DNA of 64,000 nt from Paecilomyces variotii (taxonomy: Eukaryota): assembly GCA_004022145.1 (NCBI GenBank), contig RCNU01000007.1. One strand, given 5' to 3'. Positions within the stretch are counted from its first letter, which is position 1; each line of letters begins with the position of its first letter. Made by a program: the position numbers and the translations under genes. The notes under the pieces are model-generated. The model had not been told where the DNA came from. It searched no databases and was given only the letters and a program-made list of their open reading frames with translations. Positions 22,100-50,731 of the stretch are shown piece by piece.

Positions 22100-22699
22100 G
22101 GTAATATGTATCTTGTTGAGTCGTTATAATAATACCCGTTGTCGTCTACATCCACAAGGATAGTTGGGTTTGGATTTATTTAGAGTTCCGGATCACTGTA
22201 TGGTACATATACTATGTCTGCAAGAATAATGGTATATTCTTTGGTACATAAACATGGGCGATACATATTGTTTAATATTCAGATCACCGGATCTTTCCGA
22301 ACATGCCCCATACCGGGTGTTTTGTTCTCTGACCGTCGGCTATCAAGACCTCATTGCTGAGCGCTTTTGTTGTCACTGCAATTCTGGGCAAAGCTCTGTC
22401 AAGAATTCTGTCGTCTCTTGTTTCAGGCTGCATTGTGGGTTGTTGGTCGCGCCGCCGTAGGATCCCTCTCCCCTTATCAAAGCCCATCTGGCGTTCTCAA
22501 CATCCTAGATTCTTGCCGCCGTAAAGCCTTATAAAGCATTTCCCAGAAAGGCACCTATAACGATGAACTTCGTTTTCAAAAAAGCAACGGGAGGCTTAAG
22601 TAGTAATTAAGACACCACATTTGCCTAATATGAGGTCCGGGACGTCGCATTGGAGGTTTCTGTCTAGCTATGGGATGAATACTTACTGATCGGCAAACA

Positions 22700-28688: not shown

Positions 28689-29772
28689 TTTGAATAGCCT
28701 TTACGATGTAATACTATTCAACTGGCTCGGCCTCGGCCTCCGGAATCCTCCACCCGGGCCTTGCCCCCGGGATAAACACAAGGAGCCCAATGCTCCGCCG
28801 ACAAATCAGTAGGGCACTTTGCGACGCCTGCTAGATCAATCCATACACGCGTATACTATATTAGAATCCTTCTGCATGTCGGGAGGGGTCCTAGACAACT
28901 TGCTAATGCCATTGCTTCCTTGAGTTGCTTTCTACGGTTGCACCTTTTATGTACATAAATCCATATCTTAGCACAGCACGTCTCTATACCTCATGGGAGG
29001 TCACCAGGGGCACAGGCGTCGCCTGCGCCTCGCCGGAAGTTAAGCCTTGATTACAGAGAATACCTTATACCACCACTTCCGACGATCACACATTTCCCTT
29101 CCCCGCATTGCACCTCCTTTCTAGCCGAGTTCGTAAGAAACCTACAGGTAGGGTATATTTCCAATCATGATGATCTTAAAGACAGGCATTACGAGCGACA
29201 GCTCGTCTGATATGCAGTGCAGGGCTATCAAATCTGCACTAGTGCTGCACCGCAACGGATGGAGCCGATCAATATGTACAGTGTCATTGGATAAAGAGAA
29301 TATTCGGTCCTTCTTTTTGTACTAACGTATATGAAGCGTCGTTAAGCTATTCCAATTCAGCTGTCGTCTGCAGTTTGCATGCATATGCGTGTGATTGCGG
29401 GAATATAGTCTAATTAAGAGTTAGAAGCCTTGTTATATACGAGTAGTTAGTTACCGGTGGCCTGTTAGATACCTTGTCTGTTCGTATTCCGTGATACTGA
29501 CGTGTCGTATACTCGGACGTGAGAGTAATGGCAGGATAATACTGCCCCACACGATAATTTCTACAATCGGCTTAGGATGCAGCTTGATGGTATTATTGGA
29601 GGTTATTATAAGGAGTCGCCTTTCATAGCTGAATTTTGCAGCGAGCTCCGATTACCTCTTGAAAATAATAATAAAAATTGCATCGGGGTATCCTACTCTA
29701 ATTGCACTTTTATCGAGATATTGCGTAATACAGGTCCTGTTCTTCCCGGATATCGAAGGCATAGATACTACC

Positions 29773-31338: not shown

Positions 31339-31698
31339 ATAACTGCGCTGCCACGGTGTACTTTTGAATTCTGTTGGATATAATTACAGCTTGTCTCTCT
31401 CTCTCTTACCCCCTTTCTTTGCCTCTTTTTTACTACTGTGCAAGGGTTATTCTCTCTATAGAGCATAGATAAACTGAGTAACACTAGTTAGTATTTGACC
31501 ACTCAAGTGTAATGACTGGTAAATATATGTTCATTTTTCTCAGCATATATAAAATTAGTGAGGGCGCAAAATTACATATCTAAGCAACCTCAACTAACTA
31601 CGATATATTTATTCTAAAATATACCAGACTGCTGCAAACAGATAATTGACAGATTACCTGGTATTTGCTTTATGCGCAGACAATATTTTAAGATTATG

Positions 31699-31716
31699 TA
31701 TATATATATATATATA
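31699..31716. repeat. (TA)9 microsatellite
   Basis: Direct reading; lies in the AT-rich region between the convergent P450 and prnD 3' ends. Confidence 0.9.
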
Positions 31717-31785
31717 AAAACCTGCTAATGAACAAAGGGATATCTTATTAATTATTGAACAAAAGTTCTCTCTGCACTTTTAAGT

Positions 31786-33285
31786 CTAGAAACCTAGTGC
31801 CTTTCTAGCACGTCTCTGCAACTCCTGCGCCATAGCAAGTTGCGACTGCTTTGTCCGGCCGACAGCCTCAGTGTTCTCTACAGCGCGTCGGAACAGGAAT
31901 CCCATGCACTCCTTAACAGAGCCCCATGTCAGAAGTTTGTAGACATTAGGAGACTCTGTTGTAGCTACAGTGGTGCCAGCTTCAGCGCTCTGGAAACCCT
32001 GGAGAAGCTCACAGCTGACTTCGTCTGCCATACCCTGCAGCTGAGCATAGGCGAGTTCCACGCGAGGCTCGCTGCGTGCGGCCTGCTGCAGGCGGATGGA
32101 GTGAGCCTTTCGGACGGAGTCCTGGTTGTGGGTAGCGATGATAACATTAACAGGGGGTAGTTTGACAGTGTGCTCATCGGAAGCAGGCTTCAGGACATCG
32201 TTGTATCGTCGGGCCAACAGAGCCTCGACGATACCATCGTAGCAGCGGTCAGTTTCTTCCTTTTCAGCCCAGATCAAGTGACGAGGTTCGGTCTTCAAGT
32301 ATGCTCCACGCACTAGCTTTACACCCAGCGTGTAGCCTTCCTGACGAGCAATCTCTAGGTGCCTAGCAATAGTGGCGGGTGTAGACCGCAGGTAGGCTTG
32401 GTATGTGCCGTATAGAGTTGCCCGACCAGGGGTCTTTAAGTTGATGTATTTCTGATAAGTCATGATCCATTCCTCGATACCAGGCTGAACGGCCTGCTCC
32501 TCAGCGTCGACAAGCAAGCGCGCACCACGGGCAATGGCGGAATCGCAAACAGAGCGGATGGCTTCGTCCATGTATTCCGAAGGAGGTAATTTCTGCCGAA
32601 GCAGGCTCAAAGCCTGATTTCCCATACCGGTAAACCTGAACGGAAACTTCGTTAGTCACGACGGCACAACCTCAGGACAGTAGTATGGTGATGCCTACTT
32701 TAGCGCGACAAAGTCTCCTTCCTGAGCCATATCAACAGTCTGCAATGTTCCCTGCAGCCATGTATCCACCTCTTCTCGAGCAGCCTTTTCGTCCACGAGA
32801 TTACCGCCATTCTCTCCAGCTAGAACTTCACGAGCGTATCCCAAAAGGACTCCTCTGTATCCTAAACTCTTCATTTCCTGGATGGACCTCTGAACCTCAA
32901 CTTTGTTCTCACCGGCATTGAACTGCTTATAAATCGTGTTCTTAATGATCCAGTTGAGCGCTGGGTTTTTCGCCACATCTAAAACCGGAGTCTTGGGATG
33001 GGCTAGGGCAGACAATGCTCGGATGCATGGCTTCAAGAGAATAGGAGATGAGGAAATCGAGAGGATCAACAGGGATCGGAGAACCGTAGAAAGGGGGAGC
33101 ACTGCCAGCGGTGACTCCGTTGTTCGCTTCTCCGACGACGGCTGCAGGCAGTTGTTTATAGAAGCTGTCGACGGCGTACTGACGACCGGGGATCGAGAAG
33201 TGCCCGTATTGCTCACACGTCTCGGCCTAGGATATGTGCTGGACTTGACTCGCAGCGTCCGCAACGGGCGGGGCGGACGGTTCAT
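31786..33285 (-). CDS. prnD: Proline dehydrogenase/oxidase (PrnD/Put1); intron 32636-32698
   Basis: YKQFNAGE, spliced VALKFTG, LLVDAEE, TYQAYL, GVKLVRGAY, IATHN, AQLQGMAD, FLFRRAVEN. Confidence 0.95.
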
Positions 33286-33692
33286 CGCTACTCGAGTAAT
33301 AAATAATATCTGCTGGGAAGAGGGACTGTGATAATCCCACGCGACTGGTGTTTGATGTTTGACGTTTATCGATGACCCTTGCGGATAGAGATTTATATCG
33401 AAGCCATAGATAAGTTGAGATACACAAAATTACTACGTGAAATGGGCAGAAGATTCGATGATATACTCGTCATATCCGTGTAGCCCATGCCTCTTTGTTT
33501 TGCATCATCCGGTCATTCCCACCCCGACCGGTACGGTCACCAGCGGAAGAAGATTCCATGACAACCAACCATTTCTTTGCCACTCTTATCTGATCAGTTT
33601 ACTCTAAGAGCGAGCCATTGTCCAGAAGGCCGGGAGATAACGCAGCCTGCATATACTTATCATCCCGCTCCCGGTGCACGTCGAGTCGCTCT

Positions 33693-33701
33693 CCGGCCCG
33701 G
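33693..33701. promoter_or_regulatory. PrnA-type site CCGG-N-CCGG in the prnD-prnB divergent promoter
   Basis: CCGGCCCGG read directly; matches the CCGG-N-CCGG mode I recall for A. nidulans PrnA. Flanked by GATAA/TTATC sites at about 33636, 33657 and 33710. Confidence 0.7.
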
Positions 33702-33918
33702 GCAGTCTCGATAAGTAAACTTACGGATTGCTTGTCTGTCTCGACTTTCGACAGTCTAAGAAATGTTTCCGCTCCGCTCAGGCCAAGCTGCAAACAGAGA
33801 GTGATTGTTATTCGCTAGATGAGACCGAGACCGACTTTACTCTATTTAATTTTATTTTTTATCTATATGTATAGAGAAACCGGCAACGCTTGTGGGAGCC
33901 GGCTCGCTAAGTAAGTAA

Positions 33919-33933
33919 CCGGCTGCATGCCGG
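33919..33933. promoter_or_regulatory. PrnA-type site CCGG-N7-CCGG
   Basis: CCGGCTGCATGCCGG in the prnD-prnB intergenic region. Confidence 0.6.
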
Positions 33934-34404
33934 TCACGGTCAGTGCGTGTTCTTTTCCGCTGGGGGTAGATCTATCATCTCACTAAGTAGATAGTAGATA
34001 GTTATACTAGTTATAACTAGTTACAGTGCAAGCTGTTTGTCATAGGCAATTGTCATTTGTGCCCTGAACTCTCTCAAAATCCCCGCGCGCACGTTCCTAT
34101 CAGCGGAGACGCAAGACTGTAACCGTGGCTAATATACCCCGAGGCCAATGGCCGCTCCCGTTCTGGAAATTCTCTACCAAAACGATCTCCAGAGCCAAGA
34201 CACGCGATGGTTTACTGCCCACGGCCACGGCCGCGCAAGGCTTCCCCGCGTATGGCCCTGGGGTCCTGCGTGAGGCCTTATAACCCGGCTAAGCGAAGGC
34301 TGCTTCTTGCAAGAAAGACATTTCTCGCCCGTCACGGCTGTGTCGTTCTATACTTAGTCGCCGTGGACCATTGAAAAGAAAAAGAGCAGAAATAGAAAAA
34401 TTGT

Positions 34405-36370
34405 ATGAACACCATGAGTGGCTCTCCGAAGGAGCTGGAGGAAGCCAAGGCGGAGGCAACAAATGTTGTCGCGCACACTGACTCCAAGTCCATCAAGGGC
34501 GAGGTGAATCATATCCCCCGGGGCGAGACGCATCGAGGGTTGACCAGCCGCCATATCCAATTCCTGGCGCTGGGAGGATGTATTGGAACGGGTCTGTTTG
34601 TGGGATCGGGAGCGACCCTGTCTCTTGTCGGCCCAGGTGAGTTGGTGGAAAATCCGATACACGATGCCACGGGATGCTGACTGCGGACGAGCCCCCTTGC
34701 TCATGAGCTATATTGCCATGTCATCGGTCGTGTGGGCGGTCATGAACGTGCTGGGTGAAATGTCTACATACCTGCCGGTTCAGGGAGTCTCAGTTCCATA
34801 TTTTGTCAACAGGTTTACCGAGCCAAGTTTGGCATTTGCAGTTGGTAAGTCCAGGAGCCATCTGTAGCGTGTCTTCACCGGATGACTCGACTGACTGGTC
34901 TCCAGGGTACAATTACTGGTGAGATATTAACATGCACAGAGTTAGCAAGCAGAACCAGCCTAACACTGCAAACAGGTACTCGTATTCTATGTTGATTGCC
35001 TCAGAGGTCACTGCCGCAGCATTGATTATCCAGTACTGGACGACCGAGGTCCCAGTGGCGGCCTGGATCACGATCATTCTTGTCGGTATGCATTCAGGAT
35101 GACTCTCTGGGCAGAATTTGTCTGATTTTCCGCAGTGATCCTGTTTCTGAACGTCGTTGCTGTGTCCTTTTTCGGCGAGGCAGAGTTCTGGTTTGCGTCT
35201 ATCAAGATTATTGCCATTGTTGGACTGATCGTCCTGGGCGTGGTCTTGTTCTTCGGCGGTGGCCCTAACCACGATCGACTTGGATTTCGCTACTGGCAGC
35301 ATCCCGGTGCATTTAATCCACACATGGTGGGAGGAGATACCGGCCGATTCCTTGCATTCTGGACGGCCTTCATCAGATCGGGATTCTCTTTTATTTTCTC
35401 CCCAGAGCTCATCACAGCCGCTGCCGGTGAAGCGGTATCCCCTCGTCGCAACATTCCCAAGGCGACAAACAGATTCATCTACCGTCTCGTCGCCTTCTAC
35501 GTCCTCGGATCGCTGGTCATTGGTGTCACAGTGGCATACAATGATAAGAGTCTCCTGTCAGGTATTGCGAGTGGTAGTGAAGGCGCCGGTGCCAGTCCAT
35601 TCGTCATCGCGATCCAAAACGCTGGCATCAAGGGGTTGAATCACGTTATCAACGCCGCTATCCTCACATCAGCGTGGTCTTCGGGCAACTCGTGGCTCTT
35701 TGCAGGTTCTCGAACGCTGTATTCCCTGGCTTGTGCAGGTCAGGCACCGAAGATCTTCGCGCGCTGCAACCGCAAAGGTATCCCTTACGTCTCGGTGCTG
35801 CTCACATTTGCCATTGGATGCATTTCGTACCTCAACGTGTCTGATTCCGGAGCAACCGTCTTTTACTGGTTCACTAACATCACAACCGTTGGAGGTTTTA
35901 TCTCCTGGATTGTCCTCCTGGTCGCTTATCTGGTAGGTTTCCCTGCTGCTTAGATATATATCCCTCACGATTCTTTCGAGAAACAACCATGTTAATAGCC
36001 ACTACAGCGGTTCCGCGGGGCAATGCAGTTTCACGGCATACTGCACACTCGACCATTCAAAACCCCCCTCCAGCCATACAGCACATACTACGCTCTTTTC
36101 ATCGTGTCTCTCCTTGCTCTAACCAACGGCTACGCCGTATTCTTCCCGGGACAATTCACTGCGTCCGGGTTCCTGGTCTCATATATCGGCTTCGCTATCT
36201 TCATTGTTCTCTATATCGGCCACAAGGCGTGGTACCGGACGCCATGGATGGTGAAGATATCAGAGGTAGATATTTTTTCCGGAAAGGATGAGATGGATCG
36301 GCTGTGCGAGGACGACGTGGAGAGACTGCCCCGAAATTGGCTAGAGAAGATCTGGTTCTGGATCGCGTAA
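34405..36370 (+). CDS. prnB: Proline permease (PrnB/Put4, APC/YAT family); several introns including a 13-nt micro-exon at 34906-34918
   Basis: [64 protein letters not shown]. Divergent from prnD. Confidence 0.93.
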
Positions 36371-36408
36371 AAGGGCCTTAGACGATACATTTTCTTTTCT
36401 TTTTATTC

Positions 36409-36435
36409 TTTTTTTTTTTTTTTTTTTTTTTTTTT
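36409..36435. repeat. Poly-T tract (27 nt) in the prnB 3' region
   Basis: Direct reading. Confidence 0.9.
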
Positions 36436-36891
36436 CATGTTTATGTTTGTACGCTGTAGAGATGTTTTAAAAGTATTTGTATATGAATCTGTATATAGTT
36501 GCACGCTCTCAAGTGCAACGAATTTAAACGCCCTATAGACGTGAATTTCGAAGCAATCGCAGATGCACATTGGATCCTATTCGAACATTCTGTCATTGAT
36601 ATCCCAGCTTATGCTTGCAGACCTTTCAGATTGTGGTCGTTGTATAACTAGAATATGAAAGTTCCTGCCTGAGGCAACAAAGTCACTGATCCACCGAATC
36701 CACTACCATTGTTGGGAACTGCACTACCATACTTGTCATGGAACACGATAAAAGTCGGAGTGCAGGATCTTGTTTATCCAGATAGTATGGTATCTTCTTC
36801 AAATAACGGCGTCTCTTTCCCCCATCAACAACCATTAGATCTACCAATCCGCCATTCTCCACTACTTACCCCAGGCGATTGCGAGGAGGAT

Positions 36892-36904
36892 GCGGGGACC
36901 CCAG
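36892..36904. promoter_or_regulatory. Pair of oppositely oriented CreA consensus sites (GCGGGG-A-CCCCAG) upstream of prnC
   Basis: Both halves match SYGGRG, on opposite strands, separated by 1 bp. Confidence 0.55.
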
Positions 36905-37018
36905 TATCCGCATCTCCAGTGCACGGTCGCATCTGGATGAGCCAGAGGAATCTATAGAGTAATAGGAAAGCAGAATTTACCGGTATAATTCCTTTCATTC
37001 CCCGGTGTTGTATTTAGT

Positions 37019-37044
37019 GTATGTATGTATGTATGTATGTATGT
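37019..37044. repeat. (GTAT)6 microsatellite
   Basis: Direct reading. Confidence 0.9.
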
Positions 37045-37057
37045 TCTCCGTGGCGAA

Positions 37058-37076
37058 CCGGCAGCAGCCGGCCCGG
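37058..37076. promoter_or_regulatory. Composite PrnA-type site CCGG-N6-CCGG-N-CCGG upstream of prnC
   Basis: CCGGCAGCAGCCGGCCCGG. The same CCGGCCCGG 9-mer occurs at 33693. Confidence 0.7.
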
Positions 37077-37464
37077 TGTGTTCTCTCTCCGCCCGGCAAG
37101 CTCTCCGGGCGATACTTATCTTATCGCTCTGGGATCTATCTTGCTAACTACCTAGGTAGATGATGAACGTGGTTCTCAGCGGAGAGGAAGCTTCTGCGGC
37201 CAAGAAAGATTTCCGTTAGTACTGCTGGTTTTCCAGTGCGCTTTAAATTGTTGTCTTCGCTGTGTTCAGCTCTACTTGCTTTATCTTGTCGGTGCTGAGT
37301 TAGGTACTTATCTAAGTACCTGTGATAACTAGCAGACGGCATCCCTACGTCCAGCATCCAGGAACACGACGTGTTGTCGACAACCGGGGCTACACAGAAC
37401 TTGTTCGGTGTAATATTTGACTCTTTTGCCCATCTAGAGATAAAGAAGGAAGACGTCCACCAAG

Positions 37465-39442
37465 ATGCGATCTGTGGTATCGCTCAACGCCGCAGCGCCG
37501 CTGTCGAGATTCCAAGCAATCTCGTGCAGCTTTCCTTGCAGGCGGGGTCTCGCGTCGCTGGCCAACTTCAAGGTGCCACGCATCGACAATGAGCCAAACG
37601 TAAGCTCAACGTGATAATCTAGCTGCAAGGAACATCAGGTATGCTAACATGGTCGAGATAGAAACACTACGCTCCTGGCTCGCCGGATCGAAAGGCCCTC
37701 GAGCAAGCACTTGCTACTGTCAAACAGAACGCCCCTATCCATGTGCCTTTGGTGATTGGGGGAAAGGAGGTGGGTTTTCCATGGAAACAATACTCTCTAT
37801 AGGAGACAGGATATGCTGACTCTTCACAGATTAAGAGTTCGTCCATTCAGACACAGTCAAACCCCTCCTCACACGCACCGCTAGCTACCTACTCCAATGC
37901 GACCCCTGCCGATGTTGAGGCCGCTATCGAAGCTTCTCTGGCAGCACGGAAATCATGGGCCTCTGCATCCTTCGCCGATCGCGCCAGTATTTTCCTCAAG
38001 GCTGCGGATCTGATATCGACAAAGTACCGGTATGAGATCATGGCCCTGACCATGCACGGTCAAGGCAAGAACGCTTGGCAGGCAGAGATCGATGCTGCGG
38101 CGGAGTTGTGCGATTTCCTGAGGTCAGTCATCCCAGGAGAAGTATATATGTTGGCAGCGCTCATCCTACTGACGATAATAACAGATTTGGTGTCAAGTAT
38201 GCCGAGGAGCTGTACTCGCAGCAGCCTGCACACAACTCCCCTTGCGTCTGGAAGTGAGTTTGCCCCCCCAAGGACCGTAGTACTGTGCAAGTGAACAAGA
38301 CTTCTAACATTCTCAGTCGTTTGGAGTACCGTCCTCTGGAAGGCTTCGTCTACGCTATCAGTCCCTTCAATTTCACTGCCATTGGAGGCAACTTGGCCGG
38401 AGCCCCCGCCCTGATGGGCAACGTGGTTGTCTGGAAGCCATCTCCATCAGCGGTTGCTGCCAACTGGTTGACCCATCAGATTCTTCTTGAAGCTGGTCTG
38501 CCCCAAAATGTCATCCAGTTCGTTCCTGGTGATGCTGAGGAAGTAACCAACACTGTCCTGAACCACCCCGAGTTTTCCGCCCTGCACTTCACTGGGAGCA
38601 CCAATGTCTTCCGCTCATTGTATGGAAAGATCGCCACCGGTACAGCAGAGGGCAAGTATAAGAGCTACCCCCGTATCGTCGGTGAGACGGGAGGCAAGAA
38701 CTTCCACCTGATCCACAAGAGCGCCGATATCCAGAATGCTGTTGTACAGACAGTCCGCGGGGCTTTCGAGTACCAGGGCCAGAAGTGCAGTGCTACGTCG
38801 CGGGCCTACGTTGCGTCATCTATTGCTGACGATTTCCTGGAGGGTGTCGTTGCCGAAGTCAAAAAACTGAAGGTCGGTGAACCATCCGACTTCACCAACT
38901 TCTGCGGTCCAGTGATCCACGAGGGATCATTCAACAAATTGGCCAGTGTCATCGAGGGAGCCAAGAACGACCCGGAGCTTGAACTGCTGGCCGGCGGTAC
39001 CTACGACTCATCTAAGGGCTGGTATATCCAGCCCACCGTCTACCGGACCACGAACCCCAACCACCCTCTGCTCTCCCGGGAGCTGTTCGGCCCCATTCTT
39101 GTTGTTTATAGTTACGATGACTCTCCGTCCTCCGCCTTCGCTGATATCTGTAAGACTATCGACGAGACTGGGGAGTATGGACTTACCGGATCTGTGTTCG
39201 CCCGGGACAGGGAGGCCCTTCGGCTGGCCGAAGAAGCGCTCCGCAACACCGCCGGCAATTTCTACCTCAACTGCAAGAGCACAGGTGCCGTCGTGGGCCA
39301 GCAACCTTTTGGTGGTGCCCGAGCTAGCGGCACCAACGATAAGGCTGGAAGTGCGAACATTCTATCGCGCTTCGTCAGTCTGCGTTCCATCAAAGAGGAA
39401 TTCGTTCCGACGTACAGCGTTGCGTATCCGAGCAACGCGTAG
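37465..39442 (+). CDS. prnC: Delta-1-pyrroline-5-carboxylate dehydrogenase (PrnC/Put2), mitochondrial; four short introns in the 5' half
   Basis: Presequence then FKVPRIDNEPN; GQGKNAWQAEIDAAAE, ISPFNFTAIG, FTGST, GETGGKNFH, FEYQGQKCSA, ELFGP, QPFGGARASGTNDK. Confidence 0.96.
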
Positions 39443-40017: not shown

Positions 40018-41207
40018 CTACCTCGGAGCCGAAGCCTGAATCAATCTCTGCATACTATCTTGCGCCTTCGCCGCAAAATCAGGCATTTCATAATCCTTGC
40101 CCTTCCCCTCTGGTCCACCATCGAACACCTCCATAGAAAACCAACCCCTAAACCCAGTCTTGAGAACCGCCCTGGTCACATCCTCAATCGGCAAATACCC
40201 ACCACTATACGGCAGGGGTCTAAAATCATGACTCCACCTTCCTCTCGGTCTGAGTCCATTGATCTCCTTATTCTCCAGCGGCTTTGTCGGTTTATACGCA
40301 TCGGAGATCTGAAGCAGATAGATCTTCTCCGGGGGGATAGTTTTTGCAAGTTCGTCCATACTCTCCTGCCAGCGTTTCTCAAGTTCGTCGCGCGGGATAG
40401 ATTCGATCAGACCCGAGGCCGTAGTGGGATCCCCCCATTCGCTTCCGGCCGTTTGGAACGTGTCCAGACACAGCCCGACGTTGGGTCTATCGACGTCCCT
40501 GACAATCTCCCAGACGTCTTTCCAGGTGGGCGCGTGCGTCGACCAGCACCAGTTCTCGTAGGCGATGCGGAAGTTGTTCTGTGCGAGCTTGTCGGCGAGA
40601 TCGCGCAGGTCTTGGATGATGTCTTCGCGGTTCCCGGACATTTTCTCAGGAGGAGAGTCTGATGATCCGACCTATGAATAATAATAAACGATGTTCCCTG
40701 TTAGCATATATATATTCAAGTCTCATTCATGCAGTAAATAATAATATCATCTCTCGTGTTTTTGCAAGTATAATAATAATTGTATAGAGAGTAGTGTATG
40801 TATGTACATACCTGCAACAAATCCGTTCCTACAACCTTCATAATCTCTATCCACCCATTCGCCCTGAACCACGCATTTTCCTGATCCTTCGACCCCCTCT
40901 TCCATCCTTCAAAATTACTGAAAGGCTGCAACATCATCACCTGGAGATTGTTCGCATTGCAGAGTTTCTTTATCTCGCCCGCTACCGTGAGCAATTCGGC
41001 AAAGTTGTCGCTGGCTACTTGATGGCCACAAATTCGCGAGCCGTAGTCGAGGATATCCGGAAACGAGAGCTCGATGCCAGTGAAGCCAGCAGCTGCGATG
41101 GCTTCGAGTTTCTGAGGGAGGGTGTGGGAGGGCTTGCATCCGATGGAGCAGGTGGCATAGGACACGGGAATATTCTTGACGGGGGCTAAGGAGTTTTTGG
41201 AAGTCAT
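40018..41207 (-). CDS. Xylose-isomerase-like/AP-endonuclease-2 TIM-barrel enzyme, 3-dehydroshikimate dehydratase (QutC/QuiC1 N-domain)-like; intron 40672-40811
   Basis: YATCSIG...LPQKLEAIAAAGFTGIEL, LQPFSNFEG. Putative metal ligands in IAYENW, LCLDTFQ, LQISDA and MEVF. Confidence 0.8.
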
Positions 41208-42106
41208 GGTGATGGTCTCTTTTTTTTTTTCTTTATTGGCGATAATGAGGTGTTGATTATTTGTTTTTTAAGAGGTTTATAGGAGGATAGGACAGTAAAT
41301 ATTAAGGACAGTTGAATATACCTAGGTAGGTAGGTAGCTCCGTTATACCCAAATGGAGAGAGTAAGGTGTAACTTAGGTCACTGGAGTAGGTGCTCATTA
41401 AGCGGAGAAGCTAGTTACTCTATTGCTGTGTAACAGACGCATCGACGGTCATAGAGTACTCACTACTTTCCTACACGGTAGATTCACTTCTATCAGGTTA
41501 TGCTTCAGTCGGTCATACAATGATGATGATGATGATGTATTGACGCCAACCGGAATGAGTCCCGTCTTAGGGCTTAGGGCTGGGGCAGCGGGCATCGGCG
41601 GAATGTCGTAATGGGAACATCATCCGCAACACCAGAATAATCACTAGTGATCCCTTTATCATTAATTGGATAGACGAACTGGTTACCTCTCTGTCCATCG
41701 GTCTATCTGTCTATCTGCCTATCATGGCAGTTGTGCCAAGAACGCTGTCGAATACTCTTATACAGACTTATATGGTATAAAGCGTGTGGCAACACCTTCT
41801 TGTCTGCCCACATCTCAAATGGGGACATCATAAAATTCTATAAATACATTGGTACAAGGACACGCTCTGACGCGGGTTATCGTGCGTGACGTCCATCCGG
41901 ACATGATTCCCCCCCCTCTTGATCTACCATGATGTAACCGCAGCGTACCTGGGTTGCTCTCCGGAGGTCACGTCCGGTCGCCGCTATCAACTCCTTCAAG
42001 TAGAGATGCAGGACCGTGTCAATACGATTCCCTCCTGTCAACTGCTTCCACTAACCGCAGCAGGAGCATTCGTCTCAAGAAATAACTCACTTCATCGACC
42101 GACACG

Positions 42107-43657
42107 ATGACTGATCCGATTTCCAAGTTCAAACGCATTGGCGTCGTCGGCGCCGGCAATATGGGGTCGATGATGACCTTTGCCTTTGCAGAACTGGGAC
42201 TCGATGTGTCAGTCTGGGATGTGAAGAAGGAAAATGTTGATCAGGTCATGAGATGGGCCAAAGATGCCAAGACTAGTAAGGGCAAGGTAGAAGGGTTCTA
42301 CGATATCGACAAATTCGTCAAAAGTCTAGACCAGGCGCCACGCAAACTGTTCATGTTCTCGATCACACACGGCAGCCCGGCGGATTCAGTACTGTCCATG
42401 ATCAAACACGACTTGAAGCCAGGAGATATTATCCTCGATGGCGGAAACGAGAACTACCGTCGGACAGAACGGAGACAGAAGGAGCTGCAGCCTCTTGGTG
42501 TCCACTGGGTCGGTATGGGGGTCTCGGGTGGTTATCAATCTGCACGCAGAGGACCTAGTTTGTCCCCTGGCGGTGATCGTAAGGCCATCGAAGAGGTCCT
42601 TCCGTTCCTTGAGATGTACGCTGCCAAGGACCGCAGGACGGGCCTTCCCTGTGTTACGTACATTGGCCCCGGAGGTGCAGGTCATTTTGTGAAGATGGTT
42701 CACAATGGAATCGAGGGAGGAATGCTCTCGACTGTCTGTGAAGCGTGGGCGTTACTGCACAATGGTCTCGGATTGCAGTACGATGAGATCGGTGACATCT
42801 TTGAGAAATGGAACAGCCACGGTGAACTGAAAGAGTCATACCTGGTCCAGATTGGATCCGAAATCTTACGAACCAAGAAGACCCCGTCAGGAGATTACCA
42901 TGGAGAAGGCAGGAGCCAGGCTGATGGATACGTCCTCGACGATGTCCTGGACAAAGTCGTACAAGACGACGACGGCACCGAAGGTACACCTTTCTGGACA
43001 ATAATGGACACTGCTGCGCGTCATGTTTCCGCTCCAACCCTAGCAACAGCCCACTACCTGCGTGTCGCCAGCGGAAACCGCGAGGAGAGGATCAAAGTCG
43101 CCCAGAAACTTGGTGTGCCCAAACCACGCCCGCTATCCGCAGTCAAGGACAAGGGCCAGTTTATCGAAACTCTTCGTCGTGCAGTATACTGCACCTTCCT
43201 CGCCTCTTTCTGCCAGGGTCTTGAAGTCATCGCCAACGCTTCAGACGCCGAAGGCTGGGACATCGACATGGGCAAATGCATCCAGATCTGGCGAGCCGGT
43301 TGTATCATCCAAGAGGAGTACATTGCCGATTTACTCCAGCCCGTGCTCTCCAACTCCAAGACCCCGATCCGCAACATCAAGCAGATCGACGGCGTCGCGG
43401 CGGAATTGCACCGGAACTATGACTCGCTTAAGCAGATCGTTATGCTGGCTACGGAAGCAGACCATTACATTCCCGCCATGTCTGCCACTTTGGAATACCT
43501 CAAGTACTGCGGAGGCACCATGTTGCCGACCAAGTTCATGGAGGCCGAGATGGACTTCTTCGGAGCTCACGCGTACGACAAGCCTGGTGTGCCTGGAGAA
43601 GATCCCGGAAAGGTGGCCAAGGGCGCGCACCACTATGAATGGAGACCAGCGAAATAG
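42107..43657 (+). CDS. Divergent 6-phosphogluconate dehydrogenase-like (decarboxylating beta-hydroxyacid dehydrogenase) paralogue, intronless
   Basis: GAGNMG, DIILDGGN, GMGVSGG, GAGHFVKMVHNGIE, IWRAGCII, DFFGAH. Confidence 0.88.
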   Translation: MTDPISKFKRIGVVGAGNMGSMMTFAFAELGLDVSVWDVKKENVDQVMRWAKDAKTSKGKVEGFYDIDKFVKSLDQAPRKLFMFSITHGSPADSVLSMIKHDLKPGDIILDGGNENYRRTERRQKELQPLGVHWVGMGVSGGYQSARRGPSLSPGGDRKAIEEVLPFLEMYAAKDRRTGLPCVTYIGPGGAGHFVKMVHNGIEGGMLSTVCEAWALLHNGLGLQYDEIGDIFEKWNSHGELKESYLVQIGSEILRTKKTPSGDYHGEGRSQADGYVLDDVLDKVVQDDDGTEGTPFWTIMDTAARHVSAPTLATAHYLRVASGNREERIKVAQKLGVPKPRPLSAVKDKGQFIETLRRAVYCTFLASFCQGLEVIANASDAEGWDIDMGKCIQIWRAGCIIQEEYIADLLQPVLSNSKTPIRNIKQIDGVAAELHRNYDSLKQIVMLATEADHYIPAMSATLEYLKYCGGTMLPTKFMEAEMDFFGAHAYDKPGVPGEDPGKVAKGAHHYEWRPAK

Positions 43658-43943
43658 ACCTTTTGATGGCGTGAAATGGTCGATATCGGAATAGTAGATC
43701 GTCTAGGAGGTTTTTAACTTCGATATCTATTAGTATCAGCATCAGTTAATTCAACGGAATTTCGTAATAATCATTAGCCCCGTAGAGCATCGAATACCAA
43801 CAGAAACTGGTATAAAACGTCAGTGTCATGATGATCATTATTATGGATTTTCTAACCACAGGGTATGAATAAAGCCCTGGGTCTGTGATTAAGTATCGTT
43901 AACTCGTCAAGGGCTGTCATAATGTACATTTCACATGTTATGC

Positions 43944-45109
43944 TTAGAACTCCAACTCCTCAATTTCCATCCCACAATCGACACACTTCTTAACTGAAAT
44001 GCCGCTCTCCGGATTTTCGACTGCACGACCCCATTGATGTACATGTCGACCACCACCCAGATCATCTCCAAAGTTGCCCCCTGCAGCGCCTTTACGATTT
44101 CGTCGATATGCCTCTACGCGGGTGCGCTTTTTCAAGTCTTGCAATTTCGTCTTGAATTTGGCTTCTCTTCGCCGCTTTTTGTCTTGTTCGCGGCGTTCGA
44201 ACTCAGCGTCCAGCGCTTCTGGCGAACCCCACTTCTTGGGCGAGAAAGCGTATTCTTCAACTTGATATCGGAGGTATAGCATCATGTTGTTCCAAGTGGC
44301 CTTGTGAGGGTTGGGCTTTTCTAAATGGGGTAGGAGTTCTTCGTCTCGGAGTTCAGCTGTACACACGAAGGTCAGCACAAGCTCTTAAAAGGTAGGGGCT
44401 TGGATGAAGACAACTTACGATCGGTTAATAGATAGTCTTCTTTCGCTTCCGTCTTCGTGAGCAGGCTGTATTTCTCCGTATATTTCTCTTTGCATGAATT
44501 GCATACGCAACACCCAAAGGCTTCCTCCCACTTCCAGTCAATTTCCAATGTCCCGCACTCGCGACATGTCTTTTGGTTACTCTTCTCCTCCAGCACGCTC
44601 AACCCTGGTTCGAATGGTCCTGCACGTTCTCGTTGTAGAGACTTGAGAAGTTGCTGTCGCTCCCACTCTTTCTGTGTCATATGCGCGGGTTTCTGCTCTA
44701 CACTCTCATCGCGCACGTGGAGCGCCTTGTTATGTGGATCGTCCTCCTCCGTCAGGAACCCTCCCTTCGTATCGGTCATTTTGCTGAAGTCGTACTCGAC
44801 ATACTTTGCAAAGTTCCGAGCCGGACGGATCGAATCCAGTGGTCTGTTTGCAGAGGCTGCGCTGGCATCTCGAACGGTAGCTGGGGTATCTGTGGTCATC
44901 GAGGAAAAGGATCGTTTCACGCCAGCGAGGCCCACGGGTTTCGCAGGAGCTGTGGCAGCTTTCTTGGCTTCCTCTGCTTCTCGTTGCTCGCGGATCGCCT
45001 TCGCTTTCATTCGGTTTATTTCAATGCGCCGCAACTGCTCCGGCGTGAGTGGGCCCCGAGGGAGCTGGCCAGGCTCAGAAGGAGGAGTCGATGGTCTGTC
45101 CATTGCCAT
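43944..45109 (-). CDS. rad14: Nucleotide excision repair protein Rad14/XPA; intron 44357-44418
   Basis: IEINRMKA, YVEYDFSKMTDTKGGF, Zn finger CREC..VCNSC, YSLLTKTEAKEDYLLTD, KPNPH, MMLYLRYQVE, KWGS, C-terminal CVDCG. Confidence 0.95.
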
Positions 45110-45405
45110 ATCTGATTATGAGTACTGTGGAGTGTGTAGTGTGTAGAGGCTGGCCTGCAGCTCCTGTTGAGAAGGGAATGCAGTGGGAGATGAGAGAAGA
45201 TTCGCCTCCCTCGAGATGCGCCAAAGATCAGGCACAGCCCAATCGGGAAGCGGCAGCCCCCCGCCGTCCGATACAAAAAATGTTCCCCCTCCAGACGCCT
45301 CGGGTTTCTTTCTGAATGTCAGCAACATCTTTCCTGCGCCAGTTCTCGTCTCGTATCGCAAAACCTCGGATCCGAATCGAATCCCCGAAGCAACTGGCAG
45401 GGAAG

Positions 45406-46532
45406 ATGGTCGCCGTCCCCAAGGAATACAAAGGTAAGCAGCTGAAAGCAATGCGGCCCGCTTCCGTTCGACGTTGGAGATACCCCTCCTTTTTTGTTGT
45501 CGCAATGGCACTATCTACTGGGTACTCTATGATCATCTAACTTTCTTTCCTCTGATATAGAGCCTGTCCGGATCGCCGTCATCGGTGGTACCGGACTCAG
45601 GGAACTCCCGGGTTTCACGCAGGTTGCGACCCTGGATATCTCGACTCCCTGGGGCAAGCCCTCCGCTCCTATCACTATCCTCCACCACAAGTGCTCGACT
45701 GACGGCAAGGATGTCGCTGTCGCCTTCCTGAGCCGTCATGGCCTTCACCATCAGATTGCTCCCCACGAGGTGCCTGCTCGTGCCAACATTGCTGCTTTGC
45801 GGTCTATCGGCGTGCGAACCATCATTGCTTTCTCTGCTGTGGGAAGCTTGCAGGAGCATATCAAGCCTCGCGATTTTGTGGTTCCAGACCAGGTCATTGA
45901 CAGAACCAAGGGCATCCGGCCATTCACATTCTTCGAGGGAGGTGCTGTCGCTCACGTTCCCTTCGGTGACCCATTTGATGAGCGTGTTGCTAAGGTCGTT
46001 CGGGCTTGCGGACACAGCTTGGAGGGAGAGGGTGTCGTGCTGCATGACCGCGGCACATTGATTTGTATGGGTATGTTCTTGCTTGTGCGCACAATTGCAT
46101 CTGCAGTAAATCAATCGTGCTAATATCTAAACAGAGGGCCCTCAATTCTCCACTCGCGCTGAAAGCAACCTATACCGCTCTTGGGGTGGCAGCGTGATTA
46201 ACATGTCCGCCCTTCCGGAGGCCAAGCTCGCCCGTGAGGCTGAAATCGCATACCAGATGATCTGCATGTCGACGGATTACGACTGCTGGCACGAGTCGAC
46301 CGAGGATGTCACCGTCGAGATGGTTATGGGTAACATGAAAGCTAACGCAGTTAATGCGAAGCATTTTGTCACTGCTGTTCTCGACGAACTCGCTAAGGAA
46401 GAGCATGCTGAACTTGTGCAGGCTAAGCACATTGCTGGCTCTGTGAAGTTCGGTGTTAGCACCCCTGTCCCTCACTGGAGTGCCGATGCTCGGGAAAAGT
46501 TGACTTGGCTCTTCCCTGGGTACTTTGAGTAG
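45406..46532 (+). CDS. meu1: S-methyl-5'-thioadenosine phosphorylase (MTAP/Meu1); introns 45434-45560 and 46071-46134
   Basis: Spliced EPVRIAVIGGTG, STPWG, LSRHG, ARANIAAL, SAVGSL, MEGPQFSTRAES, INMS, MSTDYDCW. Confidence 0.93.
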
Positions 46533-47995
46533 ACGATGTGAACGATTACGAGAGTTCTCTTTTCCGTCCTTATTTCGCTAGATAGCGCTTCCATGTCAGA
46601 TACCTTAGAAAATAGAAAACGCTTGCTTCAAGGATCCATGAAACTAGCATTGAAGAATGCTTAATATCGGCTCTTATTGTCGTATCATCCTCTTTTATGA
46701 AGCGGCATATGAGCACAGCGACTGGTACGTCTTGGTGATAAGATCGATGCTAGCTTTGCACGTCAGGGGAACTGGGAACTTTGCCTTATTCGACCAAGCG
46801 ATGGCCGTTCCGGGTTCCTGATATGGATAATAAGCCGTGGAGGTAAAAAAGGTTAGTGATTGCTCTGAAACTTATTATTATTGAACCGATGTTTATCCCG
46901 CCGTTCTGAGAATGCTATCCATGCCATTATTATTGCTTCCAACATCATCCCATTATTTCGTGCCGTCGATATCTCGGTGCTTACTCTATACGTCTCACAC
47001 GACCAACTTTAAAGAGCTTAAAAGAACTGCTTGTACATACGGAGTACATACCCTGTTGCAATACCTCCTCGTATCCGGGGCTTCCCTGACTCAACGAACG
47101 GCTGGTGGATCCACGGGGCCGTTTTTAAGTCTCTACTTAGCGCGATCACCAAGATTAGTTGGTCTCGTCGTTGTCGATCCCCGAGCCGATATAGCATCAT
47201 TCAGCTTATTTCTGGGGAAAAAGGATCTCAGCAATGCGGTCCGAAATCGGTCACAACGTCTCTAAGTCTAAAGTCTAGTTGGGATCGAGTTCGGGATACG
47301 CGGTAAAAAACCAACTATCTAACATCGCCTGAGATTACAGTCGGGCTTTCTGAAGCATTGGAATATAAGAGCTGGAACTTGATCTCCCTTGCTCCGGCAT
47401 GACTCTGATCGCGTGCCCAATCTCAGTTGTGCTTAACGGAAGACCTTCTATTCAACGACAGACTGCAATCCATAAAAGCTCGTCTTAATATAGAATATCA
47501 ATGACGCGGGATCGACAGATGCCCCGAAATGCCAATTTAACTCTTGAACTCTAGGGCTGGTGGGCCTCAATCGTGGAGTCTAGCACCGTTCCAACTTCCT
47601 GTTCCTGGCATGGTCATCTACTCTAATGCATTAGTTAGCCTGCGCTTCCGATCTCCTTTCTAGTCTAGAGTTGTCTCGGGGATCGGTGCACATGGCACAT
47701 GCCTCGGTCGCGTGGATCGGAGGATGAGGAGAGTAAGTAGATAGATAGGCCTTAAATTCTGGTCTTGCTTGGTTGAAATATCCTAATACCCCTCCTTGCT
47801 TTTCTTTATGTTTCTTCTCACGCGCTCTTTCAAGGCTGCAAGTTCTCCATTTGTTGCCGGGTCTTCTTCCATCGCCGTCCGTTGGCTCTTTTTTCACCGT
47901 CACTCATTATATACACTATCTTGATAAACTAATTGATATTAATGGTTTGATCGTCCATTCTTTTTCGCTTTGGCTTGGCACCATCTCTTTCAGCC

Positions 47996-50731
47996 ATGGC
48001 GTTCATCACTTGTCTTACTGTAGTCTCTCTTTTGGTTTCTCCCATCACGTCCTCGCCAGTTGATCCGTCCCATGTTGACCCAGCGGATATTCTTAAGCGG
48101 GATCCTGTACCAGCTGGCTATCAATCGCCTCCATATTACCCGACACCCAAGGGAGGATGGGTATCGGACTGGGCTGAGGCCTATGCAAAGGCCTACGACG
48201 TCGTGAGCAACATGACTCTGGCCGAGAAGATCAACATGACCACCGGAACAGGGATCTTCATGGGTCCTTGTGTCGGCCAAACTGGCAGTGCTGAACGCTT
48301 CGGGATCCCCAATATCTGTCTCATGGACTCTCCGCTAGGTATTCGCAATACTGATCACAACACGGCTTTCCCGCCGGGGATCACCGTTGGAGCGACTTTC
48401 GACAAGGATCTCATGTATGCACGCGGAGTCGCACTTGGTGAGGAAGCCCGAGGAAAAGGTGTCAATGTCCTCATGGGGCCGGTTGTCGCGCCGCTTGGCC
48501 GCAAGCCACGAGGTGGTCGTAACTGGGAGGGTTTCGGTGCCGATCCCAGTCTGCAGGCAATTGGTGCTGCGCAGACGATTAAGGGAATGCAAAGCACCGG
48601 TGTGATCGCGACACTGAAGCATTTCATCGGGTATGAGCAGGAAGAGGACCGGATGAGCAGCATCATCACGCAGGGATACTCGTCCAATATCGATGATAGG
48701 ACTCTCCATGAGCTCTACCTTTGGCCGTTCGCCGAAGGAGTCAAAGCTGGAGTCGGCTCTGTCATGATCGCCTATAACGATGTATGCAGTTCTACACTAT
48801 GGTTTATGCTTGACTGCTGATTTGTATGATTAGGTGAACGGATCCGCTTGCAGCCAGAACAGCAAGCTGATCAACGGCGTATTAAAAGATGAGCTTGGAT
48901 TCCAGGGATTTGTTGTCACGGACTGGCTCGCTCAAATTGGCGGTGTCTCGTCGGCACTCGCTGGTCTTGACATGAGCATGCCCGGTGATGGCGCTGTTCC
49001 TTTGTTTGGTGACAGCTATTGGGGCTCAGACCTCTCCAAGTCTGTCCTCAATGGTACTGTTCCGCTGGACCGGTTGAACGATATGGTTCGTGGCCCAAGG
49101 GATCCTTCTGAAATGGTCTTGTCCAAGAGCTAATATTAACACAGGTGACCCGTATTGTCGCTACATGGTTCAAGTTTGGCCAGGACAAGGACTTCCCCCT
49201 ACCAAATTTCTCCAGCAACACCCTAGACAGAACAGGCGAAATCTATCCCGGTGCTCTCTTCTCACCCATAGGCATCGTCAACCAATACGTGAATGTCCAA
49301 GCCAACCACAACATCGTGGCCAGGGCCGTTGCAAGAGACGCGATCACTCTCCTGAAGAACGACCACAACATATTGCCCCTGAAGAGAAACGACTCACTGA
49401 AGGTGTTCGGTACTGATGCGGGCGGAAACCCTGACGGTATCAATTCCTGTAGCGACCATGGCTGCGACAAGGGTGTCCTCGTTGAGGGATGGGGAAGTGG
49501 CACGTCCAGACTTCCTTACCTTATCACGCCACAGGATGCCATCGCCAACAGATCCTCCAACGCCAAATTCTATATCACGGATACGTTCCCATCCGACGTG
49601 ACCGCCAACTCAAATGATGTCGCTGTCGTTTTCATCAACTCTGATTCCGGTGAAAACTATATCACCGTCGAGGGTAACCCTGGAGACCGCACAGTATCCG
49701 GCCTTTATGCATGGCACAACGGAGATGAATTGGTCCAAGCTGCCGCAGAGAAGTTCTCTAAAGTGGTCGTGGTCGTCCACACCGTTGGCCCTATCATCTT
49801 GGAGAAGTGGATCGATTTACCTTCAGTGAAGAGCGTCGTGTTTGCCCATCTACCAGGCCAGGAAGCCGGAAACTCCCTCGTAGACGTCCTGTTCGGAGAC
49901 TACAGTCCCAGCGGACATCTGCCTTACACGATCCCTCGTAACGAGTCCGACTACCCAAAGAGTGTGGGCCTTATCAATCAACCCTTCGGTCAGATCCAAG
50001 ACACTTTCACTGAAGGTCTATACATCGACTACCGCCATTTCCAGAGTGCCAACATCACCCCACGATACCCCTTCGGCCATGGTCTATCCTACACTACGTT
50101 CAACATCACCGAGCCGACTCTATCCGTTATCACGCCCCTGGATAGCGAGTATCCTGCCGCACGGCCCGCTAAAAATGCTACTCCCACATATAGCGACGTG
50201 ATCCCTCCCCCATCCGAAGTAGCCTGGCCAAAGACCAACTTCACCCGCATCTGGCGCTATCTCTATCCATACCTCGATAACCCCTCTGCCGCCGCGAAGA
50301 CCAACTCAACCTCCTACCCCTATCCCTCAGGTTACAGCACCATACCTAAGCCCGCGCCTCGCGCCGGTGGTGCTGAAGGCGGCAACCCAGCCCTATGGGA
50401 CATTGCCTACTCCGTCAACGTCACGGTGAGAAACACCGGTTCTCGACCAGGAAAGGCCGTGGCTCAGCTCTACGTCGAGCTACCTTCATCTCTGGCCCTC
50501 GACACGCCCCGTCTGCAACTTCGCCAGTTCGAGAAGACGCGCACGTTGGCTCCCGGCCAGAGCGAGGTTGTGACGATGGAACTGACACGGAAGGATTTGA
50601 GCGTTTGGGACGTAGTGGTACAGGATTGGAAAGCGCCCGTTGGCGGAGAAGGGGTTAAGATCTGGGTTGGACAGAGTGTAGGTGACCTTAGTGTTGTCTG
50701 TGAAGTTGGAGGCGAGTGTGGAAGTGCGTAG
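47996..50731 (+). CDS. bglF: Secreted GH3 beta-glucosidase (BglF-like); introns approx. 48782-48833 and 49086-49144
   Basis: Signal peptide, [40 protein letters not shown] (nucleophile region), SDSGE, C-terminal FnIII-like domain. Closely resembles the Aspergillus BglF sequence as I recall it. Confidence 0.9.

Follow-up and report, generated by a model that had tools for sequence, protein, structure and literature searches.

A mainly fungal subfamily of the 6-phosphogluconate dehydrogenase fold in which most of the phosphate clamp has been replaced

We analyzed a 64,000-nucleotide stretch of the Paecilomyces variotii genome (GenBank assembly GCA_004022145.1, contig RCNU01000007.1), hereafter referred to as the window, focusing on a gene that encodes a paralogue of 6-phosphogluconate dehydrogenase (6PGDH, Gnd). 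The gene, located at 42107–43657 on the plus strand, is an uninterrupted open reading frame (ORF) encoding 516 amino acids, with the ATG at 42107 as the first in the open frame and a TAG stop codon. Sparse neighboring ORFs broken up by introns, domains of fungal-specific transcription factors and PDR transporters in the window, and a top database match for the protein at 91% identity, from P. variotii, all indicate a filamentous ascomycete near Paecilomyces/Byssochlamys. The paralogue belongs to a subfamily of the 6PGDH fold that is uncharacterised and carries a wrong name in many records; it does not constitute a system of a new kind. It keeps the catalytic residues of 6PGDH and has lost three of the four residues that directly bind the phosphate of 6-phosphogluconate (6PG).

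Results

The gene encodes a transcribed protein with the long-chain 6PGDH fold

Pfam profiles assigned residues 10–187 to NAD_binding_2 (PF03446) and residues 192–512 to 6PGD (PF00393), with E values of 2e-34 and 1.4e-81, respectively, both above the gathering scores. An AlphaFold2 model built with a 123-sequence alignment (A1) had a predicted local distance difference test score (pLDDT) of 96.6 and displayed the architecture of long-chain 6PGDHs, comprising an N-terminal Rossmann domain, an all-helical 6PGD domain and a C-terminal tail. A Foldseek search with this model returned long-chain dimeric 6PGDHs as the best matches (template-modelling (TM) score by target 0.86–0.94, identity 27–33%), and ranks 1–38 were all long-chain 6PGDH structures. 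The protein also carries the Ser-Gly-Gly, catalytic Lys and Asn residues of the β-hydroxyacid dehydrogenase superfamily. Its scores against the NCBIfam gnd equivalogs fell below the cut-offs (NF006765, 381.8 bits versus 413; TIGR00873, 364.5 bits versus 426.7), as did those against the short-chain NAD+-dependent 6PGDH profiles (TIGR00872 gnd_rel, 154.5 bits versus 297.2; NF007161, 179.7 versus 271). Taken together with the homology and phylogeny described below, this is best explained by a cytosolic, presumably dimeric, long-chain member of a separate, old and mainly fungal subfamily, for which the dimer geometry is taken over from homologues.

Transcript evidence came from the cDNA metatranscriptome libraries X10 and X12, which belong to different studies and contain contigs 95–100% identical to the window. 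The contigs of both studies end at 43737, and none of the listed joints leads to the downstream MTAP gene. GT..AG joints in the X10/X12 libraries mark introns in the neighboring genes, at 40670–40809 in a TIM-barrel gene, at 44357–44418 in Rad14, and at 45432–45558 and 46070–46133 in MTAP. These joints show that the contigs derive from spliced RNA, and hence that the 6PGDH-like gene lacks introns and is transcribed on its own. All five listed differences between the coding sequence and the RNA contigs are synonymous, third-position changes; the gene is expressed and under purifying selection. The RNA libraries X4 and X6, whose 9-kb contigs run through intergenic DNA, were left out as evidence of transcription. 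A strain 95–100% identical to the window is transcriptionally active in food-fermentation metatranscriptomes from three studies (runs X4, X6, X10 and X12).

Table 1 Features of the window, with the 6PGDH-like gene and its motifs first, followed by the neighboring genes
Feature	Position	Strand	Evidence
Coding sequence of the long-chain 6PGDH-family paralogue (P0001), intronless	42107..43657	+	Translation, Pfam, AlphaFold2, Foldseek
Unspliced mRNA contig extent	42009..43737	+	X12 record 11 (1729 nt), no joint; X10 records 2-4 cover 42047-43737
GAGNMG dinucleotide-binding motif (residues 15-20) and β2-α2 turn Asp38-Val39-Lys40	42149..42226	+	Alignments
DGGN-E: Asn114 kept, Glu115 for Ser/Thr103 subfamily-wide	42437..42451	+	Alignments
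VSGG-Y: Ser140, Gly141, Gly142 (carboxylate/C1-C2 side) kept; Tyr143 for Glu131	42521..42535	+	Alignments
KMVHNGIEG: general base Lys196, His199, Asn200 and general acid Glu203 kept; Gly204 for Tyr191	42692..42718	+	Alignments; catalytic roles as described in PMC8900737
Active-site loop: insert DDDGT (287-291), Glu292 for Lys260, Thr294 (=Thr262) kept	42965..42988	+	Alignments
Arg319 (=Arg287), sole direct phosphate ligand retained	43061..43063	+	121/121 close homologues, all representative rows
Tail helix FMEAEMDFFGAH: Phe477, Glu479 (for Gln442), Met482 (for Arg445/446), His488 (=His451/452) kept	43535..43570	+	Alignments
Region of 896 bp between divergent start codons, possible shared promoter	41211..42106	.	
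OCD/mu-crystallin, prnX-like	23951-25132	+	
Zn-cluster regulator, prnA-like	26239-28685	+	
Cytochrome P450, between regulator and proline dehydrogenase	29629-31335	+	
Proline dehydrogenase, prnD-like	31789-33429	-	
Amino-acid permease, prnB-like	about 34900-36370	+	
Aldehyde dehydrogenase, prnC-like	37803-39442	+	
Xylose-isomerase-like TIM barrel, 3-dehydroshikimate-dehydratase-like, two exons, divergent from the 6PGDH-like gene	40018-41210	-	PF01261
XPA/Rad14	43944-45115	-	
MTAP	about 45300-46532	+	
GH3 beta-glucosidase	47951-50731	+	

Catalytic residues are kept and the phosphate clamp is dismantled

Residues were mapped by alignment to the 6PG-bound 6PGDH of Geobacillus stearothermophilus (2w90/2w8z) and to Escherichia coli Gnd (P0122). 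The alignment showed that the paralogue keeps Lys196 (=Lys183), Glu203 (=Glu190), Asn200 (=Asn187) and His199 (=His186), together with Ser140 (=Ser128) followed by Gly141-Gly142, Asn114 (=Asn102), Thr294 (=Thr262) and His488 (=His451/452). The corresponding motifs, DGGN (residues 111–114), VSGG (139–142), GHFVKMVHNGIEG (192–204) and FFGAH (484–488), are all present. In the description of 6PGDH given in the review PMC8900737, Lys183 acts as the general base and Glu190 as the general acid.

The distal end of the site differs. According to the contacts reported in PMC2675582, PMC8900737 and PMC1919378 (Table 2 therein), the phosphate of 6PG is hydrogen-bonded by Tyr190/191, Lys260 and Arg287 of one subunit and by Arg446 of its partner. 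The paralogue has Gly204 in place of Tyr191 (codon 42716; HNGIEY to HNGIEG), Glu292 in place of Lys260 (codon 42980; GQKGTGKWT to GTEGTPFWT), with the five-residue insert DDDGT just before position 260, and Met482 in place of Arg445/446 (codon 43550; QRDYFGAH to EMDFFGAH). The fourth direct ligand, Arg287, is retained as Arg319. Three of the four clamp residues expected of an EC 1.1.1.44 enzyme (Tyr191, Lys260, Arg287 and Arg446 of the partner) are thus replaced. In canonical dimers, as described in PMC8900737 and PMC1919378, the tail helix enters the active site of the partner, so that Arg446 and His452 are contributed by the partner subunit.

An earlier note on this DNA had called the catalytic and carboxylate-binding motifs (DGGN, VSGG, GAH, and the catalytic Lys and Glu) intact and had placed the three substitutions at these same codons; translation and alignment agreed with both statements, exactly so for the coordinates and residues, and the three papers cited for the clamp do name Tyr191, Lys260 and Arg446 as phosphate ligands. 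Its account of the clamp was incomplete in one respect, in that the loss of three ligands stands and the retention of the fourth, Arg287, had not been weighed. It also lacked the loss of the NADP motif and the changes of Glu131 to Tyr143 and Thr103 to Glu115, which are described below.

We scanned the alignments for positions that separate the subfamily from canonical enzymes, requiring at least 90% conservation in the narrow clade and, at 70% or more, a different residue in canonical enzymes, with the clade residue rare there. No new conserved Lys or Arg was found among these positions; the earlier note had named an alignment with other basic residues rebuilding the phosphate pocket as something that would refute its reading. 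Acidic residues were gained instead, namely Glu115, Asp287, Asp288, Asp289, Glu292 and Glu479, the last of which replaces Gln442 on the tail helix that also carries Met482. The scan also returned two gained histidines, His88 in the coenzyme domain, where canonical enzymes have Ala76, and His306, which takes the place of Gly274, and several gained serines, replacing Gly133, Met141 and Gln195. His306 is invariant in the subfamily, and Glu115, Asp287, Asp289, Glu292, His88 and His306 are common to all or nearly all of 11 distant representatives. The insert occurs in the narrow and wide clades, with Asp287 in 11/11 and Asp289 in 9/11 wide representatives. On balance, two positive charges are lost and up to five negative charges gained on segments that, in canonical enzymes, make up the active-site loop and the tail of the partner.

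The cofactor site has lost the NADP-type motif

In the account of PMC8900737, Asn32-Arg33-Thr34 set the NADP+ specificity of 6PGDH, and an Asp-Arg-Asp variant prefers NAD+. The paralogue has Asp38-Val39-Lys40 at this turn and accordingly lacks the canonical NADP+ motif. In E. coli numbering, in which the Asn and Arg of the motif are residues 33 and 34, position 33 is Asp in 120 of 121 close sequences, with one gap, and Arg is absent from position 34, where Val, Ile or Ala stands instead. Furthermore, Glu131, which together with Met13 orients the nicotinamide (PMC8900737), is replaced by Tyr143, and Ser/Thr103 is replaced by Glu115. The occurrence of Asp38-Val-Lys in place of Asn-Arg-Thr predicts that the cofactor of the paralogue is NAD+ rather than NADP+.

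The replaced clamp defines a conserved clade

The close set consisted of the query and its 120 best database homologues (121 sequences, 64–91% identity), which span Eurotiomycetes, Sordariomycetes and Dothideomycetes (Eurotiales, Xylariales, Botryosphaeriales and others). In E. coli numbering, position 260 is Glu in 121/121 of these sequences; position 445 is Met in 118 and Leu in 3; and position 191 is Gly in 96, Asn in 18 and Val in 7, and Tyr in none. Arg at position 287, Glu at position 103 and Tyr at position 131 are invariant (121/121 each). The catalytic Lys, Glu, Asn and His, Asn102, the tail His and the Rossmann glycines are likewise present in all 121, and Ser128 is present in 120, with Thr in the remaining one. 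The replacement of the clamp is a conserved subfamily trait and not a chance event, and the earlier note's suggestion that orthologues would share the substitutions was borne out. Among canonical representatives, Tyr191 and Arg445 are each found in 107/107 and Lys260 in 95%, including those with Asp at position 33.

More distant relatives came from scanning 1.84 billion cluster representatives with HMMER. A distant tier at 32–55% identity (P0123–P0130, P0132, P0133, P0149 and P0169) carries the signature Glu103, Tyr/Trp131, Gln/His191, Glu260, Leu/Met445 and Arg287. Named members include Basidiomycota (Gloeophyllum, Leucogyrophana and Rhodosporidiobolus), other Ascomycota (Rhizodiscina, Anthostomella and a Xylariales species) and one amoebozoan transcriptome. 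This last member, P0169 from Dermamoeba algensis, would take the subfamily beyond fungi unless it reflects contamination. A maximum-likelihood tree built from 123 full-length representatives united the 14 sequences that bear the signature and the degenerate P0142 in one clade (support 1.0), whose stem measured 0.49 substitutions per site. The close set thus falls together with 13 more distant eukaryotic, mostly fungal representatives. Glu260 is found in 14/15 clade representatives, and the catalytic and carboxylate-side residues are kept in nearly all of them. P0142 (Peziza echinospora, 554 amino acids) sits on a long branch and has Asp, Ala, Asp and Arg in place of Asn102, Ser128, Asn187 and the tail His; it may represent a copy in decay or one that has neofunctionalised further. 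At least two lineages of the clade occur in Pezizomycotina, with Xylariales having some members at ~70% and further ones at ~44% identity to the query, indicating that the subfamily itself has diversified. A metagenome scan with KMxHNGIE and IWR[AG]GCII, motifs shared with canonical Gnd, returned 79 loci at 31–38% identity, which were taken as canonical, mostly bacterial gnd.

The paralogue probably oxidises a non-phosphorylated 3-hydroxy acid

We consider it reasonably probable that the paralogue is an NAD+-dependent oxidative decarboxylase of a non-phosphorylated, aldonic-type 3-hydroxy acid, and most likely that, judging from its remodelled site, it no longer acts on 6PG. The steps that follow are carried over from canonical 6PGDH by homology. 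NAD+ would bind with Asp38 taking the ribose hydroxyls, there being no Arg for a 2′-phosphate. The carboxylate and the C1–C4 end of the substrate would be gripped as in Gnd, by Ser140, Gly141, Gly142, Asn114, His199, Asn200 and His488 of the partner. Lys196, as the general base, would take the proton of the C3 hydroxyl, and a hydride would pass from C3 to NAD+; the substrate is probably a 2,3-dihydroxy carboxylic acid. The resulting 3-keto acid would lose CO2, and Glu203 would protonate the enediol to give a ketone or ketose that is shorter by one carbon.

The distal pocket would be rebuilt without the phosphate clamp and lined by Glu292, the DDDGT insert, Glu479, Met482, Gly204 and Arg319. 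Gly204 may give the longer loop the space it needs, Glu292 may form a pair with Arg319, which is retained, and Met482 and Glu479 would stand for Arg and Gln on the partner's tail. Arg plus Glu or Asp is a common sugar-binding pair. Such a site should repel a dianionic phosphate and should suit vicinal hydroxyls, that is a neutral polyol tail, or a cationic ammonium tail. As a first candidate substrate we tentatively suggest an unphosphorylated aldonate such as D-gluconate, which would yield D-ribulose; a cationic hydroxy acid is the second and a rather doubtful one.

A precedent lies outside the family: a bacterial short-chain dehydrogenase/reductase (SDR) is described as oxidising the 3-hydroxyl of free C4–C6 sugar acids including D-gluconate (PMC12994016), which shows that such chemistry is used in nature. 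The likeness to this enzyme, Ltn3D, the L-threonate 3-dehydrogenase of Paracoccus, is one of functional analogy only; as presented in PMC12994016, Ltn3D has the unrelated SDR fold, is bacterial and NADP+-preferring, and needs a separate kinase and decarboxylase for the decarboxylation. Closer in descent are HIBADH, tartronate-semialdehyde reductase and the L-threonate 2-dehydrogenase LtnD, which belong to the same superfamily, share NAD_binding_2 and the Ser-Gly-Gly/Lys/Asn set, and act on unphosphorylated hydroxy acids (PMC8900737). Unlike the paralogue, however, they are about 290–300 amino acids long, have neither a duplicated helical domain nor an exchanged tail, and do not decarboxylate; their β-hydroxyacid dehydrogenase profiles gave the paralogue 30–33 bits against cut-offs of 290–350.

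Canonical long-chain 6PGDHs (E. coli Gnd, yeast Gnd1, 2w90 and sheep 1pgp) share with the paralogue the domains, fold, general base and acid, carboxylate-side ligands and tail His. The paralogue differs from them in having Gly, Glu and Met for Tyr191, Lys260 and Arg446 plus the acidic insert, Asp-Val for Asn-Arg, Tyr for Glu131 and Glu for Ser/Thr103, and in its separate, long-stemmed clade. With the NAD+-preferring, short-chain, tetrameric 6PGDHs (Gluconobacter/Gluconacetobacter; Gnd2-type) it has in common an Asp at the first position of the β2-α2 motif (PMC8900737), and a catabolic role is plausible. In contrast to the paralogue, the short-chain enzymes are about 330 amino acids long and bind 6PG in their solved complexes; the short-chain structures 10gw, 6vpb and 8ihe matched the paralogue with E values of about 1e-22 to 1e-24 and a TM score by query of 0.5.

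Several observations weigh against our interpretation. The clade representatives P0133 (JGI) and P0169 (from a transcriptome) keep Asn-Arg at the cofactor turn, indicating that NAD+ use is not universal in the subfamily; their combination of an NADP-type Asn-Arg with a remodelled phosphate pocket also shows that the pocket change and the cofactor switch are separable. The placement of Glu115, His306, Glu479 and the insert in the pocket derives from alignment and published contact lists. Arg319, Thr294 and His488 remain, and together with His306 or with a metal on the Asp/Glu loop they could hold an anion. That decarboxylation follows the oxidation is an assumption based on the retention of Glu203 and His488. 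We can only guess at the class of substrate, given that the acidic residues are compatible with sugar hydroxyls and amines alike. In the literature searched, with subscription-only papers lying outside it, we found no enzyme assay or functional study of any subfamily member. Finally, a separate canonical gnd was not demonstrated in the source genome; of the ten deep-search matches looked up in the hope of a fungal canonical representative, none had a fungal name, and the two compared with PDB entries resembled yeast Gnd1 no more closely than they did bacterial enzymes.

Some of these points feed the leading alternative, that the protein is still a 6PGDH, a NAD+-linked catabolic isoenzyme that binds the phosphate by other means, through Arg319, Thr294, His306 or a divalent cation held by the Asp287/Asp289/Glu292 loop. 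The complete fold with an intact catalytic set fits this idea, as do the equivalents of Arg287, Thr262 and His452 present in all members and the invariance of His306. Moreover, true 6PGDHs that prefer NAD+ are described in PMC8900737, and every public name says 6PGDH, although these names are automatic. Nevertheless, two of the three lost ligands change from basic to acidic or hydrophobic, up to five acidic residues are added on the loops and helices lining the canonical site, and the scores lie below the gnd equivalog cut-offs. Canonical representatives retain Tyr191 and Arg445 without exception, even where position 33 is Asp, and the β-hydroxyacid dehydrogenase superfamily is characterised in PMC8900737 as having no metal requirement. 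We therefore regard a phosphate-binding isoenzyme as unlikely.

Oxidation of a non-phosphorylated acid by an NAD+-linked enzyme, our preferred reading, refines what the earlier note had proposed. Its idea of a dehydrogenase for an unphosphorylated acid is strengthened by a site loss that is conserved, monophyletic and found in an expressed gene; the substrate itself stays conjectural. Its quinate, shikimate and fructosyl-amine suggestions have no support beyond one neighboring gene. Its warning that the gene would be mislabelled as Gnd proved apt: despite sub-cut-off scores, orthologues appear in public records as '6-phosphogluconate dehydrogenase, decarboxylating', and the ESM Atlas cluster is named 'phosphogluconate dehydrogenase (NADP(+)-dependent, decarboxylating)'. 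A metabolic model of Aspergillus niger places five such proteins under EC 1.1.1.44 (PMC6231085).

The consequences reach beyond this locus. The gene is present in hundreds of fungal genomes, labelled 6-phosphogluconate dehydrogenase, and metabolic models count it as extra pentose-phosphate capacity (as in PMC6231085); if the paralogue does use NAD+ and an unphosphorylated acid, such models would be wrong where the engineering of NADPH supply in Aspergillus and Penicillium matters, and an unassigned step by which moulds break down a sugar acid or an amino-hydroxy acid would acquire its enzyme. With some hesitation, we suggest that the subfamily may decarboxylate an unphosphorylated aldonic acid directly, in an oxidative, NAD+-linked reaction, in the simplest case D-gluconate to D-ribulose and CO2. 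In the literature searched, no such activity is ascribed to the 6PGDH family. It would provide filamentous fungi with a non-phosphorylative shortcut parallel to the oxidative pentose-phosphate step and feeding ribulokinase, an enzyme that published metabolic models list in all species. Lineages differing at position 191 (Gly/Asn/Val versus Gln/His) and position 445 (Met versus Leu) would then take different sugar acids. In any case, the subfamily offers a natural example of a phosphate clamp dismantled by Tyr to Gly, Lys to Glu and Arg to Met changes and an acidic insert, with the two-step catalytic machinery retained, and could serve the engineering of 6PGDH-type decarboxylases or carboxylases for unphosphorylated substrates.

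Neighboring genes offer little guidance to function

The 6PGDH-like gene lies head to head with the TIM-barrel gene, 896 bp apart, and directly downstream of a complete prn-type cluster (23951–39442) with prnX-, prnA-, prnD-, prnB- and prnC-like genes. The TIM barrel partially matches the QuiC N-terminal domain of NF042435 (E = 9e-21 and 7e-12, far below the cut-off) and PDB entry 5hmq (partial, E = 5e-14). It is transcribed and spliced, as shown by the joint 40669/40810 in an X10 cDNA contig, and its link to the 6PGDH-like gene is only positional.

A partnership of the two genes in degrading a hydroxy acid of the cyclic or aromatic-precursor type, whereby for instance quinate, shikimate or a cyclitol acid would be oxidised and then dehydrated, draws on this head-to-head arrangement, on cDNA contigs covering both genes in the same libraries, and on the partial resemblance of the neighbor to QuiC-type dehydroshikimate dehydratase. 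We consider it quite improbable: the Pfam-scanned ORFs of the window include no other qut-type gene (quinate permease, dehydroquinase or QutA/QutR), no paper linking both families in a cluster stood out in the literature search, and the paralogue has the carboxylate-to-Lys geometry of Gnd fully intact, whereas quinate and shikimate carry the hydroxyl to be oxidised at a position one carbon more distant from the carboxyl carbon than 6PG does.

Still less probable is a role in the prn pathway, in which the enzyme would act on a hydroxylated or amino product of proline, ornithine or hydroxyproline catabolism, that is a cationic-tailed 3-hydroxy acid. The adjacency of the prn-like genes speaks for it, and an acidic pocket would fit an ammonium group. 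PrnA sites are given in PMC5983819 as CCGG-N-CCGG or CCGG-N6/7-CCGG. Our motif scan found such sites at 33693, 33919, 37058 and 37068, in the prnD–prnB and prnB–prnC intergenic regions as in Aspergillus nidulans, but none in 41211–42106, and co-regulation of the 6PGDH-like gene with prn was rejected on this evidence. In addition, the A. nidulans cluster as set out in PMC5983819 comprises five genes (AN1729–AN1733) and no 6PGDH-like enzyme, and the subfamily is far more widely spread than clustered prn genes are reported to be in that paper. That the protein is a catalytically dead or regulatory Gnd derivative is the least credible alternative, for although its substrate pocket is strongly altered and P0142 also lacks Asn102, Ser128, Asn187 and His451, P0142 is a single long-branch exception and the Lys, Glu, Asn, His, Ser, Rossmann glycines and tail His are conserved across the 121 close homologues in the pattern of an active enzyme.

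Other features of the neighborhood were noted. A CCGG-N9-CCGG element at 41961–41977, ~130 bp 5′ of the 6PGDH-like start and just 5′ of the mRNA contig start at 42009, has a spacing unlike that of PrnA sites; it may serve another Zn-cluster factor or may have arisen by chance. The P450 gene lies within the prn-type cluster here and outside the five-gene A. nidulans cluster described in PMC5983819. An ORF at 22668–23189 on the plus strand matches only the C-terminal end of α-L-fucosidase (PF01120 positions 297–345 plus Fucosidase_C) and represents either the final exon of a gene with several exons or a remnant.

Finally, 17 of the 120 best homologues, including P0031 and P0063, are gene models of ~800 amino acids fused to MTAP (PF01048), all from Aspergillus or Penicilliopsis. 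In the window, MTAP has its own short upstream exon (cDNA joints 45431/45559 and 46069/46134), the opposite-strand XPA/Rad14 gene lies between it and the 6PGDH-like gene, and the transcripts are separate. For these reasons we read the fusions as gene-model artefacts that arose where a short first exon was missed, explain the adjacency by inherited synteny, and see no support for a functional link with MTAP. Such fusion models may spread in UniRef names ('S-methyl-5'-thioadenosine phosphorylase').

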